From Heptranchias perlo (Eukaryota), in NCBI RefSeq assembly GCF_035084215.1, contig NC_090340.1, forward strand, positions 5,704,001 through 5,768,000: 64,000 nucleotides of DNA, written 5' to 3'. The notes under the pieces were generated by a model. That model made no database searches. It had not been told where the DNA came from and worked only from the letters and a program-made list of their open reading frames with translations. This document shows, piece after piece, positions 9,961 through 55,240 of the stretch. Each line of letters begins with the position of its first letter. The stretch's first letter is position 1. A program made the position numbers and the translations under genes.

Positions 9961-10190
9961 CGTTCAATTTTTAACAGGGAGGTAGCGAAATACCTTCTTC
10001 GCGCTTTTGGAGGAGCAGGGCCTCTGGTGCAGCAACTTCCGGATTCGAACATTTAACTGCGCACGTGCGGTCGTCAGAAGTTGCTGTCCGATTTGTTCGT
10101 GAATAAAGGCAAGCACTGCCAGTCTCACTATACAGCAAAATCCGGCCCAATTTCTTTCAAAACGTGAGTTAACATTTCAAACCAAACACA

Positions 10191-10843
10191 GCATTGACCA
10201 GAAACTTAACTGGACCAGCCACATAAATACTGTGGCTACGAGAGCAGGTCAGAGGCTGGGTATTCTGAGGCGAAAAACTCACCTCCTGACTGCTCAAAGC
10301 CTTTCCACCATCTACCAGGCACAAGTCAGGAGTGTGATGGTATACTCTCCACTTGCCTGGATGAGTGCAGCTCCAACAACACTCAAGAATCTCGACACCA
10401 TCCGGGACAAAGCAGCCCGCTTGATTGGCACCCCATCCACCACCCTAAACATTCACTCCTTTCACCACCGGTGCACTGTGGCTGCAGTGTGTACCATCCA
10501 TAGGATGCACTGCAGCAACTCGCCAAGGCTTCTTCGACAGCACCTCCCAAACCCGCGACCTCTACCATCTGGAAGGACAAGGCAGAAGGCACATGGGAAC
10601 AACACCACCTGCACTTTCCCCTACAAGTCACACACCATCCCGACTTGGAAATATATCGCCGTTCCATCATCGTCCCTGGGCCAAAATCCTGGAACTCCCT
10701 TCCTAACAGCACTGTGGGAGAACCTTCACCACACGGACTGCAGTGGTTCAAGAAGGCGGCTCACCACCAACTTTTCAAGGGCAATTACGAATGGGCAATA
10801 AATGGTGGCCTCGCCAGAGACGCCCACATCCCATGAACGAATT
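10191..10843 (+). mobile_element. 3' fragment of the tRNA-headed single-ORF LINE family
   Basis: Closely matches the reverse complement of 51910-52566 (TRAGQRLGILRR...AWMSAAPTTLK; 3' tail gacgcccacatcccatgaacgaat). Confidence 0.93.
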
Positions 10844-11299
10844 AGGAAAACAGCATTTTCGAAGGAAAGGGATGGGGAGTGGGGGGCAATAGTCAGAGGC
10901 TGGAAACATGTTCCTGGTGATGTTGCCAGTTTTACCAGCAGGATCGGTTGAACACATTGGAATTTTTCCTCCTGAATTACTAATCGCCCTGAAAATACTC
11001 ACAACTCCCGATTAAAAACTGACTTGAGGGGAGAACTGCTGTTTGGTTTTGTTATTTTTCCCCAAATCTTTGAGAAACAAGGTTAGCAGTTGCTTTTAGC
11101 CATTTATGCCATTTTTCAAGATATTCAGTAGATGTCGCGTTGGGGTGCCCTGATAAACTTCAGTGGGCGAGTGGACTCAACTGCCTCAACTGCCTTATTG
11201 TGGGCCCAAAATGATTGTGTTTTCCCTTAATACGCCATTCGGAATCTCCAGGCCCGTGGTCAGTAAATCTTGTTGCTCATTGGTTGACCGTGCACTGTA

Positions 11300-22800: not shown

Positions 22801-23040
22801 ATTACTTCCTTCCTTTCACTGTGCTTCACCGGAATCAAAATTGCACCAGTAGCTCGCACTGCTGCAGCAGATCATAACATTTCATAAACAAAGGTTTGTG
22901 GTTCTTCAAAGCACTGAAGTGACAACAACATTTATATTCAGCTCCGTCATATTTTCCATCTTTAAGATCTCTTTGATTCTGTTCATACTTATGCGCAAAC
23001 CGCTGCTTATATAGAGAGCATTTCACAAAACACCCGCAAA

Positions 23041-25690
23041 GTCATAGAGTCATAGAGTTATACAGCACGGATAGAGGCCCTTCGGCCCATCGTGTCGGCG
23101 CCGGCCATCAGCCCTGTCTACTCAAATCCCATATTCCAGCATTTGGTCCGTAGCCTTGTGTGCTATGGCATTTCAAGTGCTCATCCAAATGCTTCTTGAA
23201 TGTTGTGAGGGTTCCTGCCTCAACAACCCTTTCAGACAGTGAGTTCCAGACTCCAACCACCCTCTGGGTGAAAAAGTTCTTTCTAAAATCCCCTCTAAAC
23301 CTCCCTCCTTTTACCTTGAATCTATGTCCCCTTGTTATAGAACCCTCAACGAAGGGAAAAAGCTCATAAGTATCCATCCTATCTGTGCCCCTCATAATTT
23401 TGTACACCTCAATCATGTCCCCCCTCAGCCTCCTCTGCTCCAAGGAAAACAAACCCAATCTTCCCAGTCTCTCTTCATAGCTGAAGCGCTCCAGCCCTGG
23501 TAACATCCTGGTGAATCTCCTCTGCACCTTCTCCAAAGCGATCACATCCTTCCTGTAGTGTGGCGACCAGAACTGCACACAGTACTCCAGCTGTGGCCTA
23601 ACCAGTGTTTTATACAGCTCCATCATAACCTCCTTGCTCTTATATTCTATGCCTCGGCTAATAAAGGCAAGTATCCCATGTGCCTTCTTTACCACCTTAT
23701 CTACCTGTTCCGCCACCTTCAGGGATCTGTGAACTTGCACACCAAGATCCCTCTGACCCTCTGTCTTGCCTAGGGTCCTCCCATTCATTGTGTATTCCCT
23801 TGTCTTGTTAGTCCCTCCAAAGTGCATCACCTCGCACTTTTCCGGGTTAAATTCCATTTGCCACTGTTCCGCCCATCTGACCAACCCATCTATATCGTCC
23901 TGCAGACTGAGGCTATCCTCCTCGCTATTTACCACCCTACCAATCTTTGTATCATCAGCGAACTTACTGATCATACCTTTTACATTCATATCCAAGTCAT
24001 TAATGTAGACCACAAACAGCAAGGGACCCAGCACCGATCCCTGTGGTACCCCACTTGCCACAGGCTTCCAGTCACAAAAACAACCTTCGACCATCACCCT
24101 CTGCCTTCTGCCACTAAGCCAGTTTTGTATCCAAAGTGCCAAGGCACCCTGGATTCCATGGGCTCGTACCTTCTTGACCAGTCTCCTGTGGTGGACTTTA
24201 TCGAAGGCCTTACTGAAATCCATGTATACCACATCCACTGCGTTACCCTCATCCACACGCCTAGTCACCCCCTCAAAAAATTCAATCAAATTAGTCAGAC
24301 ATGATCTTCCCTTGACAAAGCCATGTTGACTATCCCTGATTAATCCTTGCTTCTCCAAGTGGAGACTAATTTTGTCCTTCAGAATTTTTTCCAATAATTT
24401 TCCTACCACTGATGTTGGGCTCACTGACCTGTAGTTCCCCGGTTTTTCCCTACTCCCCTTCTTTAATAATGGTATTACATTAGCGGTTCTCCAGTCCTCT
24501 GGCACATCCGCTGTGGCCAGAGAGGTTCTGAATATATGTGTCAGAGCCCCCGCAATCTCCTCCTTTGCCTCACACAGTAGCCTGGGATACATTTCGTCCG
24601 GGCCTGGGGATTTATCCATTTTTAGGCCTGCTAAAACCGCCAATACCTCCTCCCGCTCGATGTTAATATGTTCGAGTATATCACAGTCACCCTGCCGTAT
24701 TTCTATGTCTACATCGTCCTTCTCCATAGTGAAAACAGATGCAAAAAATTCATTTAGAACCCCTCCTGCATCTGCCGGCTCCACACACAGATTGCCATTT
24801 TTGTCCCTAATGGGCCCTATTTTTTCCCTAGTCATCCTCTTACCCTTAATATACTTATAAAACATCTTAGGATTTTCCTTTATTTTACTCGCCAGTGTTA
24901 TTTCATGGCCCCTCCTTGATCTCCTAATTTCTTTTTTAATATGCCCCTGCACTTTTTGTACTCCTCTAGGGCTTCCTCCGTCTTTAGCCTTTTGTATCTG
25001 CCAAAAGCCCTCCTTTTTTTCCTAATCCATTCTCGTGTATCCCCTGACATCCAAGGTTCCCTGGAGTTCTTGGAACCACCCTTGTCCTTTACGGGAACAT
25101 GTTGCCATTGTATGGTCTCAATCTCCCTTCTGAAAGACTCCCATTGCTCCGATGTGGATTTTCCTACAAGCAGCTGATCCCAGTCCATTTTGGCCAGATC
25201 CTGCCTTATCCTATTAAAATCGGCCTTCCCCCAATTTAGAACCTTTATTTCCGGCCCCTCCCTGTCCTTTTCCATGACCACCTTAAATCTCACCGAATTA
25301 TGGTCAATGTCACCACAGTGCTCACCTACTAGCACTTCTTCCACTTGGCCGGCCACATTCCCTAGAATTAGGTCCAGTACCGCCCCCTCTCTTGTTGGAC
25401 TTTCTACATGCTGGCTCAAAAAGCTCTCCTGGATGCACGTTAAGAATTTTGTACCCTCTAAGCCTTTTACACTCTGAGTATCCCAGTTAATATTGGGGAA
25501 GTTGAAATCCCCCACTATTATTACCCTATTATTTGCACAATTTTCTGAGATTTGCCTACATATCTGTTCCTCTATCTCCCCCTGACTGTTTGGGGGCCTA
25601 TAGTACACTCCCATCAAAGTGCTTGCCCCCTTTTTGTTTTTAAGCTCCACCCATATGGCCTCATTATAGGAACCTGCTAATATATCATTA
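23041..25690 (-). mobile_element. Young CR1 LINE, 5'-truncated: APE (24898-25690) + 614-aa open RT region (23108-24952), one frameshift
   Basis: YYRPPN, VGDFNFP, LDLILGN, DFSKAFDKV, GVPQGSVLGP, KFADDTK, WSPHYRKD; (CTCTATGA)n tail. Confidence 0.96.
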
Positions 25691-40191: not shown

Positions 40192-40490
40192 TTGATCTAT
40201 CTATCAANNNNNNNNNNNNNNNNNNNNNNNNNNNNNNNNNNNNNNNNNNNNNNNNNNNNNNNNNNNNNNNNNNNNNNNNNNNNNNNNNNNNNNNNNNNNN
40301 NNNNNNNNNNNNNNNNNNNNNNNNNNNNNNNNNNNNNNNNNNNNNNNNNNNNNNNNNNNNNNNNNNNNNNNNNNNNNNNNNNNNNCTATAGATCTACTTA
40401 TCCACCTATCTATCTGTAAATGTATATATCCATCTAGCTATCGTCCATCTATCTATTTATCTATCGATAAATCTATCAAACTATCTTTTT
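40192..40490. repeat. (TCTA)n microsatellite containing an assembly gap (N run 40208-40385); resumes at 43884-43925
   Basis: ctat/tcta repeats flank the Ns; similar repeats plus (TA)n follow the LINE cluster. Confidence 0.85.
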
Positions 40491-43400
40491 CTATTCATTC
40501 ATAGAATGTAAGCGTCGCTGGGAACGCCAGCATTTATTGTCCATCATTAATTGCCATTTTGAAGGTGGTGGTGAGCCGCCTTCTTGAACCGCTGCAGTCC
40601 GTGTGGTCAAGGTTCTCCCACACTGCTATTAGGTAGGGAGTTTCAGGATTTTAACCCAGCAATGATGAACGAACGGCTATATATTTCCAAGTCAGGATGG
40701 TGTGTGACTTGGAGGGGAACCTGCATGGGGTGTTCCCATGTACCTGCTGCCCTTGGCCTTCTAGGTGGTAGAGGTCCCGGGTTTGGGAGGCGCTGTCGAA
40801 GAAGTCTTGGCGAGTTGCTGCAGTGTATATTGCACATGCTGACACTGCAGCCACGTTGCGCTGGTGGTGGAGGGAGTGAATGTTTAAGGTGGTGGATGGG
40901 ATACCAATCAGGCGGGCTACTTTGTCCTGGATGGTGTCGATCTTCTTGAGTATTGTTGGAGCTGCACTCATCCACACACGTGGAGAGTATTCTAACACAA
41001 TCCTGACTTGTGCCTGGTAGATGGTGGAAAGGCTCTGGGGAGTCAGGAGGTGAGTCACTCGCCGCTAACTACCCAGCCTCTGACCTGCTCTTGTAGTCAC
41101 AGTAATTATGTGGCTGGTCCAGTTAATTTTCTGGTCAATGTTGACTCCCCACCCCCCCACCCCACGCACACACACACATACGATGTTGATGGTGGGAGAT
41201 ACGGCGATTCTAATGCCGTTGAATTTAAAGGGGAGGTGGTTAGACGCTCTCCTATTGGAGATGGTCATTGCCTGCCATTTGTTTGGCACGATTGTTACCT
41301 GCCACTTATCAGCCCAAGTCTGAATGTTGTCCGGGCCTTGTTGAATGCCGACACGGACTGCTTCATTATCTGAGGGGTTGCGAATGGAACTGAACACTGT
41401 GCAATCGTTAGCAAACAACCCCATTTCTGACCTTATGATGGAGGGAAGGTCATTGATAAAGCAGCTGAAGATGATTCGGCCTAGGACACTGCCTTGTGGT
41501 ACTCCTGCAGCAATGTCCTGGTGCTGAGATGATTGGCGTGCAACACCCACTACCATCTTCCTTTTTGCCAGGTCTGGCTCTAGCCACAGGAGAGTTTTCT
41601 CCCTGATTCCCATTGACTTGTAGTGCCACACAGCACGATGGATTGTGCCCTCTGTGTGATGACGGGTCTCCGTCTCCCATGAGGTATATGCAGTGGTCAC
41701 TCCTACCAAAACTCTCATGGGCAGATGCATCTGCGACAGTTAGATTGGTGAGGACGAGGTCAAGTAGGCTTCAACCTCGTGTTGGTTCTCTCACCACCTG
41801 TCGTAGTCCCCGCCTGGCAGTTATGTCCTGCAGGACTCGGCCAGGTCGGTCAGTAGTGGTGCATCCGAGCCACTATTGGTGATGAACATTGAAGAATCCC
41901 ACCAGAGTGCATTCTGTGCCCTTGCTACCCTCAGTGCTTCCTCCAAGTGGTGTTCAACTTCAAGGAGGACTGATTCATCAGCTGAGGGAGGGAGGGAAGT
42001 GGTAATCAATAGGAAATTTCCTTGCCCATGTTTGACCTGATGCCATTCGACTTCCTGGGGTCTGGAGTCAATGTTGAGAACTCCCAGGGCCACTCCCTCC
42101 TGACTGTGTACCATTGTGCCGCCACCTCTGGTGGTTCCGTACTCCCAGTGGGACAGTACATACCCAGGGATGGTGATGGCGCTGACTGGGTTGTTAGCTG
42201 AAAGATATGATTCTGTGAGTATGTCTATGTCAGGCTATTGCTTGACTAATCTATGGGACAGCTCTCCCAATTTTGGCATAAATCCCAGATGTTAGCGAGG
42301 AGGTCTTTACAGGGTCGAATGCACTTGTTTTGCCTTTGTCGTGTCCGGTGCTCAGTGGTCCGATTCCGGATGGTCCTCCCGGTTTTATTATTATCATGTC
42401 TTTTTGTAGCAGAATTTTACAACTTATTTTTATTCGTTCATGGGATGTGGGCACCGCTGGCGAGGCCTGCATTTATTGCGCATCCCTAATTGCCCTTGAG
42501 AATGTGGTGGTGAGCTGCCTTCTTGAACAGCCACCGTCCGTGTGGTGAGGGATTCCCCACAGTGCTGTTAGGAAGTGAGTTCCAGGATTTTGACCCAGCG
42601 ACGATGAAGGAACGGCGATATATTTCCAAGTCGGGATGGTGTGAGACTTGGAGGGGAAAGTGTAGGTGGTGATGTTCCCATGTACCTGCTGCTCTTGTCT
42701 TTCTAGGTGGTAGAGGTCGCGGATTTGGGAGGTGCTGTCGAAGAAGCCTTGGCGAGTTGCTGCATTGCATCCTGTGAATGGTACACACTGCAGCGACAGT
42801 GCGCCGGTGGTGAAGGGAGTCAATATTTCGGGTGGTGGATGAGGTGTCAATCAAGCGTGCTGCTTTGTCCGGAATGGTGTCGAGATTCTTGAGTGTTGTT
42901 GGAGCTGCACTCATCAAGGCAAGTGAAGAGTATTCCTCTCCTGACTTGTGCCTTGTAGATGGTGCAAAGCCTTTAGGAGTCAGGAGGTGAGTCACTCACC
43001 GCAGAATACCCAACCTCTGACCTGTTCTTGTAGCCAAAGTATTTGTATGGCTGGTCTAGTTAAGTTTCTGGTCAATCTTGACCCCCAGGATGTTGATGGT
43101 GGTGGATTCGGCGATAGTAATGCCGTTGAATGTCAAGTGGAGGTGGTTAGACTCTCTCTTGTTGGAGATGGTAATTGCCTGGCAATTGTCTGGCGTGAAT
43201 GTTACTTGCCACTTATCAGCCCAAGCCTGGATGTAGCCCAGGTCTTGCTGCATGCGGGCTCGGACTGCTTCATTATTTGAGGGGTTGCGAATGGAACTGA
43301 ACATTGTGCAATCATCAGTGAACATCCCCATTTCTGACCTTATGATGGAGGGAAGGTCATTGATGAAGGAGCTGAAGATGGTTGGGCCTAGGACACTGCC

Positions 43401-43883
43401 CTGAGGAACTCGTGCAGCAATGTCCTGGTGCTGAGCGGATTGGCCTCCAACAACTTCTACCATCTTACTATATGCCAGGTATGACTCCAGCCACTGGAGA
43501 GTTTTCCCCCTGATTCCCATTGACTTCAATCTTACACGGGCTCCTTGGTGCCACACTCGGCCAAATGCTGCTTTGATGTGAAGGGCAGTCACTCTCACCT
43601 CACCTCTGGAATTCAGCTCCTTTGTCCATGTTTGGACCAAGGCTGTAATGAGGTCTGGAGCCGAGTGGCCCTGGCGGATCCCAAACTGAGCATCGGTGAG
43701 CACGTTATTGCTGAGTAAGTGACGCTTGATAGCACTGTCGACGACACCTTCCATCACTTTGCTGATAATTGAGATTAGACTGATGGGACGGTAATTGGCT
43801 GGATTGGATTCGTCCTGCTTTTTGTGGAATTAGTGGCTTGCTAGGTCTTTTCAGAGGGCATTTAAGAATCAACCATATTGCTG
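40490..43883 (-). mobile_element. Older copy of the tRNA-headed LINE (40490-42424 + 43830-43883), with a ~1.1 kb internal deletion at ~41619 and interrupted by a second copy
   Basis: Collinear with 51905-54955 except the jump cattgactt|gtagtgccaca; leader remnant tagtggcttgctagg...aatcaacc at 43830-43883. Confidence 0.88.
42425..43829 (-). mobile_element. 5'-truncated copy of the tRNA-headed LINE nested in the previous copy
   Basis: Own 3' tail (tattcgttcatgggatgtgggc) at 42431; RT ORF 43056-43757; truncated at gtcctgctttttgtgga. Confidence 0.9.
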
Positions 43884-44649
43884 TCTATCTATCGATCCAT
43901 CTATATATATATATATATATATATAATTTAGAAATTGTAAGAAATCATGAGCCAGAAAGATGATTGTCCAGATGTTGATCTTTAAAGTATAGGATTGCAA
44001 CATGATAGCACAGGCATTGTTATCGCATTCGATTTATTTTTCTTCTTTTAAGAGTTTGCCTGTTTATGTATTATGTACCACCCATTGTAAATTAACTAGG
44101 AAGTAGTTTATACAAGAGTAGCTTGGGTGAAGATATACATTTGGAATGTGGAGTGTGAAGGACTCCACATTTTCCACATTGGAGAAAGAGTTCGAAATCC
44201 CCACCAAAGATATTATGAATTTTATGAGGCTTTTGAACGTGGAGCAAGAACGAAAATTCAGAGCTTTGATTTGGGAGTTGCAGAATATAGGTGCGCAATG
44301 CTTGGTTTGTACCAAGATGGTACAATGAAGGGATGGGGCAATTTATTGTTAACTAAATCTGGAAGCTCTGAGAATATTAGCACAGACGAAGGGTTCAGGG
44401 AGATTCCCGAGGTAAGGAAGAGGGGAGTGATGGGCCGATTTTCCAGCCAGTAGAAGAATCGTAAATTCGATGCAATGAGGATTGAGGAACCAATGGAGGA
44501 AAGCAACGACATGGTAATAAGTGGCTGCATTTTTTATTTGATAGGATGAGAGCAGCAGACGTCTCGATAAATAGTGGCTTACGTGGAGTCGAGGTCAAGT
44601 CACAGAGAGGATCATTGGGAAAGTGGAGCCTGGAAGTCATAAAGGCATA

Positions 44650-45612
44650 CCATCTTCAGCTGCTTCATCAATGACCTTCCCTCCATCATAAGGTCAGAAA
44701 TGGGGATGTTCGCTGATGACTGCACAGTGTTCAGTTCCATTCGCAACCCCTAAAATAAAGAAGCAGTCCGGGCCCGCATGCAGCAAGACCTGGACAACAT
44801 CCAGGCTTGGGCTGATAAGTGGCAAGTAACATTCACGCCAGACAATTGCCAGGCAATGACCATCTCCAACAAGAGAGAGTCTAACCACCTCCCCTTGACA
44901 TTCAACACCATTACCATCGCCGAATCCCCCACCATCAACATCCTGCGGGTCACCATTGACCAGAAACTTAACTGGACCAGCCACATAAATACTGTGTCTA
45001 CCAGAGCAGGTCAGAGGCTGGGTATTCTGCGGCGAGTGACTCACCTCCTGACTCCTCAAAGCCTTTCCACCATATACAAGGCACAAGTCAAGAGTGTGAT
45101 GGAATACTCTCCACTTGCTTGGATGAGTGCAGCTCCAACAACACTCAAGAAGCTCGACACCATCCAAGATAAAGCAGCCCGCTTTATTGGCACCCCATCC
45201 ACCACCCTAAACATTCACTCCCTTCACCACCGGCGCACTGTGGCTGCAGTGTGTACCATCCACAGGATGCACTGCAGCAACTCGCCAAGGCTTCTTCGAC
45301 AGCACCTCCCAAACCCGCGACCTATACCACCTACAAGGACAAGAGCAGCAGGCACATGGGAACAACACCTGCACGTTCCCCTCCAAGTCACACACCATCC
45401 CGACTTGGATATATATCGCCGTTCCTTCATCGTCGCTGGGTCAAAATCCTGGAACTCCCTTCCTAACAGCACTGTGGGAGAACCGTCACCACACGGACTG
45501 CAGCGGTTCAAAAAGGCGGCTCACCACCACCTTTTCAAGGCCAATTAAGGATGGGCAATAAATGCTGGCCTCGCCAGCGACGCCCACATCCTGTGAACGA
45601 ATAAAAAAAAAA
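44650..45612 (+). mobile_element. 3' fragment of the tRNA-headed LINE family with A-rich tail
   Basis: ORF 44778-45548 near-identical to the C-terminus of 51969-54032; ends gaacgaataaaaaaaaaa. Confidence 0.93.
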
Positions 45613-51400: not shown

Positions 51401-51968
51401 GCCCTTTTTTCTATTTGGTTATATTTTTTAAGTATTATTGATAAAAAAAAACATTAATGCATGACTTTGCAATGGAGACTGAACTAAGTCTGCACGTCCT
51501 AATTGCTCTCTGCTCCTCACTCTCCTGGAGATAAAATAATGCATTGTAAAAATAACTTTCTAAATTTGTGTTTTTAGCACCTTTTCTGATTGTGGGATCA
51601 CGCACATTGGAGGAAGAGCGCATCCTATGGCTGGCGGTAGAAATCGGAAGCAGGACAAAACGGAGGCACCTATCCGGCTGAATGGTATTACCAGAGGTGA
51701 ATTTGCATTTTCTGCTGAAATTTACCCCCAAGGCAGAAATCTCAATATATAAAGCTGCAGAGTTGAGACTAGACGATTGAAGTTTAGGGCAACTGGGATC
51801 CTTTCGCTGCTAAGAAAAAACGGGAAAATCGCGGCAAAGAGGCCAAGGAAAATGGGGTAGATAATAAACATGCATTCTTGATACTGAACTTCGGAGGAAG
51901 TATTTTTTTTTATTATTCGTTCACGGGATGTGGGCGTCGCTGGCAAGGCCAGCATTTATTGCCCATCC

Positions 51969-54884
51969 CTAATTGCCCTCGAGAAGGTGGTGGTGAGCCG
52001 CCTTCTTGAACCGCTGCAGTCCGTGTGGTGACGGTTCTCCCACAGTGCTGTTAGGAAGGGAGTTCCAGGATTTTGACCCAGCGACAATGAAGGAACGGCG
52101 ATATATTTCCAAGTCGGGATGGTGTGTGACTTGGAGGGGAACGTGCAGGTGGTGTTGTTCCCATGCGCCTGCTGCCCTTGTCCTTCTAGGTGGTAGAGGT
52201 CGCGGGTTTGGGAGGTGCTGTCGAAGAAGCCTTGGCGAGTTGCTGCAGTGCATCCTATGGATGGTACACACTGCAGCCACATTGCGCCGGTGGTGAAGGG
52301 AGTGAATGTTTAGGGTGGTGGATGGGGTGCCAATCAAGCTGGCTGCTTTATCTTGGATGGTGTCGAGCTTCTTGAGTGTTGTTGGAGCTGCACTCATCCA
52401 GGCAAGTGGAGAGTATTCCATCACACTCCTGACTTGTGCCTTGTAGATGGTGGAAAGGCTTTGGGGAGTCAGGAGGTGAATCACTCGCCGCAGAATACCC
52501 AGCCTCTGACCTGCTCTCGTAGCCACAGTATTTATATGGCTGGTCCAGTTAGGTTTCTGGTCAATGGTGACCCCCAGGATGTTGATGGTGGGGGATTCGG
52601 CGATGGTAATGCCGTTGAATGTCAAGGGGAGGTGGTTAGACTCTCTCTTGTTGGAGATGGTCATTGCCTGGCACTTATCTGGCACGAATGTTACTTGCCA
52701 CTTAGGAACCCAAGCCTGGATGTTGTCCAGGTCTTGCTGCATGCAGGCTCGGAATGCTTCATTATCTGAGGGGTTGCGAATGGAACTGAACACTGTGCAG
52801 TCATCAGCGAACATCCCCATTTCTGACCTTATGATGGAGGGAAGGTCATTGATGAAGCAGCTGAAGATGGTTGGGCCTAGGACACTGCCCTGAGGAACTC
52901 CTGCAGCAATGCCCTGGGGCTGAGATGATTGGCCTCCAACAACCACGACCATCTTCCTTTGTGCTAGGTATGACTCCAGCCACTGGAGAGTTTTCCCCCT
53001 GATTCCCATTGACTTCAATTTTACTAGGGCTCCTTGGTGCCACACTCGGTCAAATGCGGCCTTGCTGTCAAGGGCAGTCACTCTCACCTCACCTCTGGAA
53101 TTCAGCTCTTTTGTCCATGTTTGGACCAAGGCTGTAATGAGGACTGGAGCCGAGTGGTCCTGGCGGAACCCAAACTGAGCATCGGTGAGCAGGTTATTGG
53201 TGAGTAAGTGCCGCTTGATAGCACTGTCGACGACACCTTCCATCACTTTGCTGATGATTGAGAGTAGACTGATGGGGCGGTAATTGGCCGGATTGGATTT
53301 GTCCTGCTTTTTGTGGACAGGACATACCTGGGCAATTTTCCACATTGTCGGGTGGATGCCAGTGTTGTAGCTGTGCTGGAACAGCTTGGCTAGAGGCGCA
53401 GCTAGTTCTGGAGCACAAGTCTTCAGCACTACAGCTGGGATGTTGTCGGTGCCCATTGCCTTTGCTGTATCCAGTGCACTCAGCCGTTTCTTGATATCAC
53501 GTGGAGTGAATCGAATTGGCCGAAGACTGGCTTCCGTGATGGTGGGGATATCGGGAGGAGGCTGAGATGGATTATCCACTCGGCACTTCTGGCTGAAGAT
53601 GGTTGCAAACGCTTCAGCCTTGTCTTTTGCACTCACGTGCTGGACTCCGCCATCATTGAGAATGGGGCTGTTTGCAGAGCCTCCTCCTCCCGTTAGTTGT
53701 TTAATTGTCAACCACCATTCACGACTGGATGTGGCAGGACTGCAGAGCTTTGATCTGATCCGTTGGTTGTGGAATCGCTTAGCTCTGTCTATAGCATGTT
53801 GCTTCCGCTGTTTAGCATGCATGTAGTCCTGAGTTGTAGCTTCACCAGGTTGGCACCTCATTTTTCGGTACGCCTGGTGCTGCTCCTGGCATGCTCTTCC
53901 ACACTCCTCATTGAACCAGGGTTGATCCCCTGGCTTGTTGGTAAAGGTAGAGTGAGGAATATGCCGGGCCATGAGGTTACAGATTGTGCTGGAATACAAT
54001 TCTGCTGCTGCTGATGGCCCACAGCGCCTCATGGATGCCCAGTTTTGAGCTGCTAGATCTGTTCAGAATCTATCCCATTTAGCATGGTGGTAGTGCCACA
54101 CAACACGTTGAATGGTGTCCTCAGTGCGAAGACGGGATTTCATCTCCACGAGGACTGTGCGGTAGTCACTCCTACCAATACTGTCATGGACAGATGCATT
54201 TGCGACAGGTAGATTGGTGAGGACGAGGTCAAGTAAGTTTTTCCCTCGTGTTGGTTCGCTCACCACCTGCCGCAGGCCCAGTCTAGCAGCTGTGTCCTTC
54301 AGGACTCGGCCAGCTCGGTCATTAGTGGTGCTACCGAGCCACTCTTGGTGATGGACTTTGAAGTCCCCCACCCAGAGTACATTTTGTGCCCTTGCTGCCC
54401 TCAATGCTTCCTCCAAGTGGTGTTCAACATGGAGGAGGACTGATTCATCAGCTGAGGGAGGACGGTAGGTGGTAATCAGCAGGAGGTTTCCTTACCCATG
54501 TTTGACCTGATGCCATGAGATTTCATGGGGTCCAGAGTCAATGTTGAGGACTCCCAGGGCCACTCCCTCCTGACTGTATATCACTGTACCGCCACCTCTG
54601 GTGGGACTGTCCTGCCGGTGGGACAGGACATACCCAGGGATGGTGATGGAAGAGTCTGGGACGTTGGCTGAAAGATATGATTCTGTGAGTATGGCTATGT
54701 CAGGCTGTTGCTTGACTCGTCTGTGGGACAGCTCTCCCAATTTTGGCACAAGTCCCCAGATACTAGTAAGGAGGACCTTGCAGGGTCGACTGGGCTTGTT
54801 GTTTTGCCGTTGTCGTGTCCGGTGCCTAGTGGTCCGATGCCGGGTGGTCCGTCCGGTTTTATTCTTATTATGACTTTTCGTAGC
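51969..54884 (-). pseudogene. APE-RT ORF of the tRNA-headed LINE: 971 codons in one frame, two premature stops (54492-54494, 54063-54065), no AUG start
   Basis: Track ORFs 54492-54749, 54063-54416 and 51969-54032 share a frame; motifs SIWGL, PDIAILTES, VGDFKVH, LLDLVLTN, NYRPISLL, KAAFDRVWH, GVPQGSVLGP, FADD. Confidence 0.9.
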
Positions 54885-55060
54885 GAGATTTTACAACTGA
54901 GTGGCTTGCTAGGCCATTTCAGAGGGCAATTAAGAATCAACCACATTGCTGTGGGTCTGGAGTCACATTTAGGCCAGACCGGGTAAGGACGGCAGGCTTC
55001 CTTCCCTGAAGGACATTAGTGAACCAGATGGGTTTTTACGACAATCCGGTAGTTTCGTGG
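54882..55060 (-). promoter_or_regulatory. Structured leader; candidate IGR-IRES-like element ending in an anticodon-mimic hairpin (54897-54922)
   Basis: Hairpins at 55023-55050, 54955-54979, 54941-54954 (GCAA tetraloop) and CUGA-AA-UGGC[CUAGCAA]GCCA-C-UCAG; loop AGC is complementary to the in-frame GCU at 54884-54882. Confidence 0.5.
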
Positions 55061-55149
55061 CTATCATTACTGATACTCGTGCTTGAATTCCAGATTTTTA
55101 TCTTAATTAATTGAATTTAATTAATTAATTGAATTTAAATTCGCCAGCT

Positions 55150-55240
55150 GCCGTGGCGGGATTTGAACTCATGACTCTGGATTTTAGTCCAGGCCTCTGG
55201 ATTATTAGCCCAGTAACATAACCACTATGCTACCGTTCCC
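55150..55240 (-). promoter_or_regulatory. tRNA-derived internal Pol III promoter (A box 55232-55222, B box 55170-55159)
   Basis: Sense strand: GGGAACGG-TAGCATAGTGG-TTATGTTA-CTGGGCTAATAATCCAG-AGGC-CTGGACTAAAATCCAG-AGTCAT-GAGTTCAAATCC-CGCCACGGCA. Confidence 0.85.

Follow-up and report, generated by a model that had tools for sequence, protein, structure and literature searches.

A tRNA-headed elasmobranch Zenon LINE without a usable start codon: a candidate polymerase III-transcribed coding retrotransposon in Heptranchias perlo

Structure and Proposed Expression of the Element

How might a long interspersed element (LINE) be expressed when it begins like a tRNA gene and enters its reading frame without a usable AUG? 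The question is raised by a minus-strand element of 3339 nt (55240–51902) in a 64,000-nt stretch of the 3.25-Gb genome of Heptranchias perlo (GCF_035084215.1, NC_090340.1, positions 5,704,001 to 5,768,000), hereafter called the window. It proves to be a defective member of elasmobranch Zenon, a LINE family that is abundant in sharks and rays and numbers thousands of copies. It consists of a leader of ~350–360 nt, a single frame (54890–51969) carrying the Pfam domains Exo_endo_phos_2 and RVT_1, and a short A-run, and the frame of the window copy is interrupted by two premature stops (54494–54492 and 54065–54063). RNA polymerase III (Pol III) probably transcribes this element, a reading that is backed indirectly by conserved A and B boxes, by flanks that have no promoter in common and by an avoidance of T-runs not seen in control LINEs. 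The combination of a Pol III RNA with a leader-driven start at a non-AUG codon seems to us evenly poised between right and wrong. The features of the element, all on the minus strand, are as follows.

55148–55240, minus strand: tRNA-derived head with its +1 at 55240 (cmscan tRNA, 19.4 bits; start base common to 28 of 44 full copies)
55222–55232, minus strand: A box (exact motif in 41 of 54 aligned copies)
55177–55213, minus strand: tandem duplicate of an anticodon-arm-like hairpin (55213–55197 and 55192–55177)
55159–55168, minus strand: B box (41 of 54 aligned copies; present in the published elasmobranch Zenon rows)
55081–55147, minus strand: AT-rich palindromic linker of variable length (37 of 50 columns identical between young and old copies; insertions and deletions)
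54893–55044, minus strand: structured leader core, a predicted translation-initiation element (145 of 152 columns identical between young and old copies)
54898–54921, minus strand: terminal hairpin with a 7-nt anticodon-like loop (54912–54906), AUG at 54917–54915 and TAG at 54911–54909
54885–54893, minus strand: A-rich 9-nt spacer, starting with an in-frame TAA in the young subfamily (three of the eight scored columns, 54892–54885, unchanged)
54881–54884, minus strand: invariant GCU-A, onset of protein conservation and predicted partner of the loop (GCU at 54884–54882)
51969–54890, minus strand: single apurinic endonuclease–reverse transcriptase (APE-RT) frame with an Arg-rich N-terminal extension
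51902–51968, minus strand: 3′ tail with a short terminal A-run; target-site duplication not found

In the mechanism that we propose, TFIIIC would bind the internal A and B boxes and Pol III would transcribe from +1 through the body, giving an uncapped RNA of 3.3 kb that would end at the first T-run of the flank, and selection would have purged T-runs from the element. The leader core would bring in ribosomes without a cap, the loop of the terminal hairpin (AGC) would pair with the GCU in the P site as a mimic of tRNA and codon, and decoding would begin without AUG at the codon after GCU (Thr or Lys). The single APE-RT protein would then bind the 3′ tail and copy its own RNA by target-primed reverse transcription. 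A start of the internal ribosome entry site (IRES) or mimic type through loop and GCU is possible and, in our estimate, slightly more doubtful than the combined reading above. Considered rather improbable, and put forward only tentatively, is the fullest version, in which the element has existed for as long as sharks and rays as a 3.3-kb coding Pol III RNA with a tRNA-mimicking, factor-independent IRES, a non-viral counterpart of those of type 6 in dicistroviruses, and has given birth to short interspersed elements (SINEs) in one step. Pol III RNAs such as Alu are reported to retrotranspose without ORF1p (PMC2666806).

Family Identity and the 5′ End

Elasmobranch Zenon (CR1-Zenon) LINEs were already known (Stuart et al. 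2026, PMC13343379), so that of the candidate new system of the original prediction the family itself is not new, while its anatomy was not found in print. The first 400 nt of the consensus rows of that paper were compared by eye, and all seven elasmobranch rows (white shark, whale shark, catshark, stingray and three dogfish) carry nearly the same leader with the tRNA-like head at its start. The A and B boxes are constant in these rows and the sequence between them is divergent, TTTT (T4) is absent from the visible 400 nt of all seven, and a 14-nt motif of the leader occurs five times in the supplement. Two hagfish rows and one coelacanth row have no such head and do contain T4 runs. The paper describes Zenon in all phyla as having a poly-A tail and no ORF1, and its main text never mentions tRNA, polymerase III or a start codon. 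The longest ORF2 lengths published there (dogfish 739, stingray 747) approximate the span between Met250 and the end in our copies (724–740), which would fit an ATG-based caller. No published tRNA-headed or Pol III-transcribed autonomous LINE was found in the open full-text literature, a collection that most subscription papers lie outside. Overall, the family is known, and its head, T-run avoidance and AUG-less start form a well-supported anatomy that is apparently undescribed.

A tRNA-derived head with A and B boxes at the exact 5′ end had been proposed from the window copy alone, and the genomic copies bear this out. The copy samples consist of the best-scoring or first-listed matches and are not random draws, and the 54 aligned copies used for the box counts include 5′-truncated ones. 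When copies were picked by the endonuclease region, 28 of the 39 best other matches extended to this 5′ end (24 of 34 once five flank duplicates were removed), and the remaining 11 broke off at various positions between 55117 and 54866 and had no alternative 5′ sequence in common except at one duplicated locus. When loci were picked by the head, 27 of 29 proceeded into the coding body and two joined the leader straight to the tail. Most full copies (28 of 44) begin at an identical GGG, the others having their first few bases absent or altered, and the flanks of the 44 share sequence in just three pairs. No convincing target-site duplications were seen among the fetched copies. Three copies lying within other copies (L034, L043 and L108) show that the unit from head to A-tail inserts as one piece, with 1–4 nt of the target lost. 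Several further Zenon copies are also nested inside copies of the same family. Because the head is fixed across the family, in the published sharks and in the ray, and because 27 of 29 head-picked loci enter the coding body, chance adjacency of a SINE is ruled out.

The likeness of the head to a tRNA is loose, with a cmscan E-value of 0.32 and a score below the gathering score of 29, and ARAGORN called no tRNA in it. An Rfam search for the parent tRNA gave only Cys and Thr genes, neither of which aligns well; the genome also contains large tandem arrays of tRNA-Cys genes with a spacing of ~2.35 kb. Some old copies (L341, L352) have a single anticodon-like arm instead of the duplicate. Exact genome matches to the leader–ORF junction numbered 6608 for the form with TAA and 1724 for the form with TAC, while an older form of the junction gave 15 matches at 70–87% identity, eight of which reach the B box or beyond (blastn). 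A hepatitis delta virus (HDV)-like ribozyme in the leader was considered and rejected, with no Rfam match and no clustering of 5′ ends.

Beyond the family, the nearest relatives show 35–40% identity. A total of 160 distant relatives of invertebrate type were collected from public contigs, 126 of them with more than 1500 nt of matched frame. Similarity to the leader was found in none of the 160 loci, and an A/B-box pair lies upstream in one of the 126 long ones listed; relaxed ARAGORN on these relatives gave only noise. No relative was found in viral contigs. Animal-type LINE frames were observed in many metagenome-assembled symbiont genomes of GTDB, most likely as host contamination.

Reading Frame and Start Codon

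A frame of more than 950 codons is intact in 13 of the 54 fetched copies, and in 12 of these 13 the first Met lies beyond the first endonuclease motif, usually at codon 247–277. The claims of a single APE-RT frame without ORF1, and of no AUG ahead of that motif, are thus upheld with one exception among the intact frames. There is no usable in-frame AUG in the master lineages, as had been proposed, but the original prediction overlooked an in-frame AUG at 54917–54915 within the terminal hairpin. With a purine at −3 and G at +4, this AUG lies in a strong context, and it is followed by TAG after one codon and by TAA (54893) after eight. TAG is the most frequent state in each group (32 of 69 TAA-type copies, at least 12 of 25 TAC copies and 10 of 12 old copies), and its losses are scattered and track the general hypermutability of T in CTA(G) described below. 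The dogfish rows carry the TAA as well.

The frame behind these stops was coding in the TAA lineage. Among substitutions present in at least four of the 69 TAA-type copies, 19 are synonymous and 12 non-synonymous, compared with 186 and 470 among private substitutions (p = 2e-4), CpG- and TpA-type sites being excluded from all counts; some of these shared variants are found segregating within the TAC group too. The ORF has therefore been under purifying selection in lineages with stops just upstream. Old copies and four of the five published species alike show protein conservation from the GCU onwards. The extension that follows (54770–54884), rich in Arg, Thr and His, varies by insertions and deletions of 15-nt repeat units that preserve the frame, and it may be an RNA-binding or nuclear-import peptide.

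Two other modes of entry were rejected. ACG after the GCU does not serve as a near-cognate start because the codon is ACA or AAA in older copies, and a frameshift from the overlapping upstream frame 54695–55015 is contradicted, by eye, by a different offset in whale shark and an early stop in stingray.

The hairpin AUG gives rise to the first serious alternative, which we regard as unlikely. It accepts the Pol III RNA and supposes that ribosomes start at this AUG, make Met-Ala-stop and reach the ORF by readthrough or by non-AUG reinitiation, with the match between loop and GCU arising by chance. UAG followed by CAA is a leaky stop context, and AUG-independent reinitiation has been described for L1 ORF2. 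The AUG stands in frame in its strong context ahead of a spacer of 9 nt in H. perlo and in four of the five published species, but the spacer of the whale-shark row is 8 nt and its AUG is out of frame, and five of the 12 old copies have GTG in its place. Likewise, nine of 25 TAC-group copies keep the AUG with both stop sites open, whereas the largest and youngest lineage (the 6608 exact junctions) has the second stop and is still under purifying selection. Losses of the TAG in single copies follow the general hypermutability of T in CTA(G), which likewise tells against this alternative. For the start without AUG, the open TAC-group copies are an adverse point, as is the dogfish row, which appears to be one base out of frame past the GCU within its first 400 nt.

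Folding of the Leader and Pairing with the GCU

In the leader core (55044–54893), young and old groups agree at 145 of 152 columns, against 37 of 50 in the linker and three of eight in the spacer. The full leader folds with z = −4.9 relative to 100 shuffles, and compensatory pairs speak for a structured leader. One of these pairs (55028/54956) lies in a long-range helix, with UA in 24 and AU in nine of 40 rows; two others, noted by eye, are 55003/54985, changed from A-U to G-C in the whale-shark row, and 54917/54901, which is G-C in old H. perlo copies and A-U in the stingray row. A five-helix model, built from the same sequences on which it was scored, pairs 87.8% of cells compared with 26–36% when slid. 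As to a possible nested PKII/PKIII ribosome-binding domain, the candidate pseudoknot helices compete with one another, and one long-range helix is backed by a compensatory pair. Two further helices were discarded: 55049–55042/54981–54974 is good within the H. perlo genome and broken in the white-shark row, and 54932–54927/54899–54894 is disrupted by an A in three published rows.

In layout the terminal hairpin resembles the anticodon arm of a tRNA. Its AGC can pair with the GCU in 28–30 of 32 LINE-type rows, with a fourth pair in 15, and GCU-A is constant while the sequence of the spacer varies. The bases at the GCU have two possible alternative partners as well, namely the start of the A box (55229–55233) and the bases preceding the spacer, in a local 5-bp hairpin (54878–54896); either could explain part of their conservation.

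Several results weigh against a tRNA-mimicking start. The compensatory change at 55028/54956 probably arose once in an ancestor and was passed on to many copies, conserved helices of at least 6 bp number 17 compared with 11.8 ± 4.2 in column shuffles, which is within chance, and RNAalifold found little on decayed copies. The pairing of loop and GCU comprises just 3–4 bp, with both positions on its other side mostly unpaired, shows no covariation at the family level, and has a counterpart in 7.6% of shuffled versions of the 80-nt stretch; the loop U is altered in 25 of 52 copies. In addition, the leader has no match to the dicistrovirus IRES model (Rfam RF00458), and the L1.1 (L1.1a, L1.1b) and SLV motifs of types 6a and 6b, as given in the published portions available, are absent from it by eye. 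The motifs of type 6 IRESs are diverse (bioRxiv 2024.04.17.590008, PMC12221177, PMC10275262), and therefore the mismatch weakens membership in that class and leaves the working analogy intact. Overall, the hairpin with its 7-nt loop and the in-frame GCU are present as originally described and a folded leader is supported, whereas the pairing of loop and GCU, and with it the dicistrovirus-type pseudoknot, is hypothetical: Rfam gives no match, and the 3–4 pairs are invariant and do not covary.

Avoidance of T-Runs and the Transcribing Polymerase

The absence of T4 from the sense strand, first noticed in the window copy, was found again in 45 of 55 copies. A total of 15 T4 runs occur in the 177.5 kb of all 55 copies, nearly all at distinct sites and several in foreign insertions, and past the end of the window copy the next T4 is reached after 50 nt. 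The linker palindrome (55081–55147) grows and shrinks among copies, with additional units in L042, and T4 has never become fixed there.

The depletion extends to shorter runs. TTT occurs seven times in the window copy against 27.4 expected (Poisson P = 4e-6), compared with 75 against 73 for AAA, 46 against 41 for GGG and 56 against 77 for CCC. The density of T4 is 0.06/kb in 69 TAA-type copies versus 4.0/kb in 38 coding fragments of other LINEs of the same genome. A young CR1-like family of similar T content, used as a control, has 11 T4 runs in 2022 nt; it is represented in the window at 23040–25688 and beyond on the minus strand, its copies are 97–99% identical, and it shares ~28% amino-acid identity with Zenon. 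None of the 126 long distant relatives is free of T4, and their minimum ratio of observed to expected TTT is 0.67, compared with 0.26 in the Zenon element, most of them being richer in T than the latter. For the window copy taken singly, the absence of T4 has P = 0.013 in base shuffles.

A mutational peculiarity of the sense strand was also observed. The T of CTA(G) departs from the majority in 10–18% of cells (window 51940–55240 and copies), which rivals CpG; the changes go to G and C, are scattered over the copies and are about three times fewer on the other strand. They might reflect either a misread modified U or a strand-biased mutation process. A Pol III-specific RNA modification is not supported as the cause, the ratio in the CR1-like control being similar, albeit at few sites.

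That the head is a tRNA relic acting as an internal promoter of RNA polymerase II (Pol II) is an improbable alternative. In it the RNA would be capped, the leader would use shunting or internal entry to begin at a non-AUG codon, and the T-poverty would be compositional or historical. LINEs are as a rule Pol II transcripts (PMC5786205), and the lepidopteran Zenon and its deletion derivative are described without a Pol III promoter (PMC6740152). The boxes of the elasmobranch element, however, have been kept across sharks and a ray despite the divergent sequence between them, and its 5′ end coincides with the tRNA-like start. A natural Pol III RNA of 3.3 kb would be far beyond the usual length, and AATAAA motifs near the 3′ end are compatible with Pol II. 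A compositional origin of the T-poverty can point to CCC, which is also somewhat low, but the four-fold depletion affects TTT and spares AAA and GGG, a pattern shared by no control LINE. Some results tell against transcription by Pol III: besides the AATAAA motifs, the absence of T4 alone reaches just P = 0.06 in dinucleotide shuffles and 0.10 in codon-usage shuffles, modest values since those nulls absorb part of the depletion, and the absence of ORF1 is no evidence for Pol III because Zenon generally lacks it.

Short Derivatives and Other Copies in the Window

With a TAC/TAT pattern for the junction, about half of the 30 matched loci join the leader to the 3′ tail. The points of joining are many and varied, several retaining the spacer and the GCU before the jump, and the same joined form occurs in contigs of other organisms. 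Many head-plus-tail forms (L082, L095, L312–L336) were seen, with differing deletion junctions and some with the first bases of the ORF. These forms fit a repeated internal deletion of the headed LINE, and deletion of the ORF would yield a ready-made SINE in one step. A passenger origin of the full-length copies, as a chance SINE–LINE fusion mobilised in trans by an AUG-bearing LINE, could draw on the commonness of these SINE-like forms and on fusion by template switching, yet it is very improbable and largely refuted by the lack of any alternative 5′ end among 39 copies, by purifying selection acting on the ORF of lineages that carry the head and by the recurrence of this architecture in five other species and in old subfamilies.

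An origin of the leader from the Deu domain of SacSINE1 was rejected, as 10 Deu-type SINE matches from the flanks, recognised by a Deu-type motif and not by the SacSINE1 reference, have no blastn similarity to it (best E 0.77). The flanks of L304, L313, L320, L322, L327, L328 and L383 contain a separate and abundant tRNA SINE of Deu type, whose body and tail are unrelated.

The four other partial copies reported for the window were located.

40486–43884, minus strand: older Zenon copy (84–85%), split by a younger 3′ fragment (43828–42424)
44649–45612, plus strand: 5′-truncated Zenon copy (95%)
10189–10850, plus strand: 5′-truncated Zenon copy (93%)

The younger 3′ fragment broke the copy at 40486–43884 within a few bases of its leader–ORF junction.

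Significance and Comparison with Known Systems

If the proposed reading is true, it would break the division between coding LINEs transcribed by Pol II and non-coding SINEs transcribed by Pol III, and would provide a natural case of a long translated Pol III RNA. It would also locate in a vertebrate genome an element that starts translation without cap or AUG, and would open a one-step route to the birth of SINEs. The idea is directly testable: the leader measures ~350–360 nt, and copies that are naturally open are available. Builders of retrotransposon tools and of tools for cap-independent expression would in addition take an interest in a compact 3.3-kb element that lacks ORF1 and brings its own promoter and start element.

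In comparison with elasmobranch Zenon as published, our element agrees in its length of ~3.3 kb, single APE-RT frame, lack of ORF1 and A-tail, while the head, the T-run avoidance and the missing AUG are not remarked on in the main text of that paper. R2 and RTE elements with 5′ HDV-like ribozymes offer another case of uncapped RNA with an AUG-poor start of translation. The Zenon element differs from them in having no match to a ribozyme family and in 5′ ends that fall at the tRNA-like +1 and not at a cleavage site within the leader.

Like the type 6 IRES of the dicistrovirus intergenic region, the leader is a structured RNA of ~170 nt with a terminal anticodon-like hairpin, followed by an A-rich linker and a GCU ahead of a frame without AUG. 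Unlike that class, it has neither an Rfam match, nor the 6a/6b loop motifs, nor covariation between loop and codon. GCU is the first codon decoded in NediV-type IRESs as described in the available text, whereas in the Zenon leader it would be the codon that is mimicked. The available texts of bioRxiv 2024.04.17.590008 and PMC12221177 contain no mention of retrotransposition and transposition, respectively.

With tRNA-derived SINEs (SINE2) the Zenon element shares the A/B-box head, the avoidance of T-runs and a 3′ tail of LINE type, but it encodes its own APE-RT and selects for it; with a frame longer than 950 codons in 13 of 54 copies and with purifying selection, it is neither non-coding nor non-autonomous, as SINEs are. 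Its head-plus-tail derivatives resemble Persaeus, the SIDE of lepidopteran Zenon, and the bipartite LINE-derived SINEs in being short and in joining the 5′ and 3′ ends of a LINE. Persaeus has no Pol III promoter according to the available text of PMC6740152, whereas here the parent LINE is already headed. Similarly, in the model of Kojima, as set out in the available part of PMC5786205, the tRNA head is added after the deletion, whereas in elasmobranch Zenon the head precedes it.

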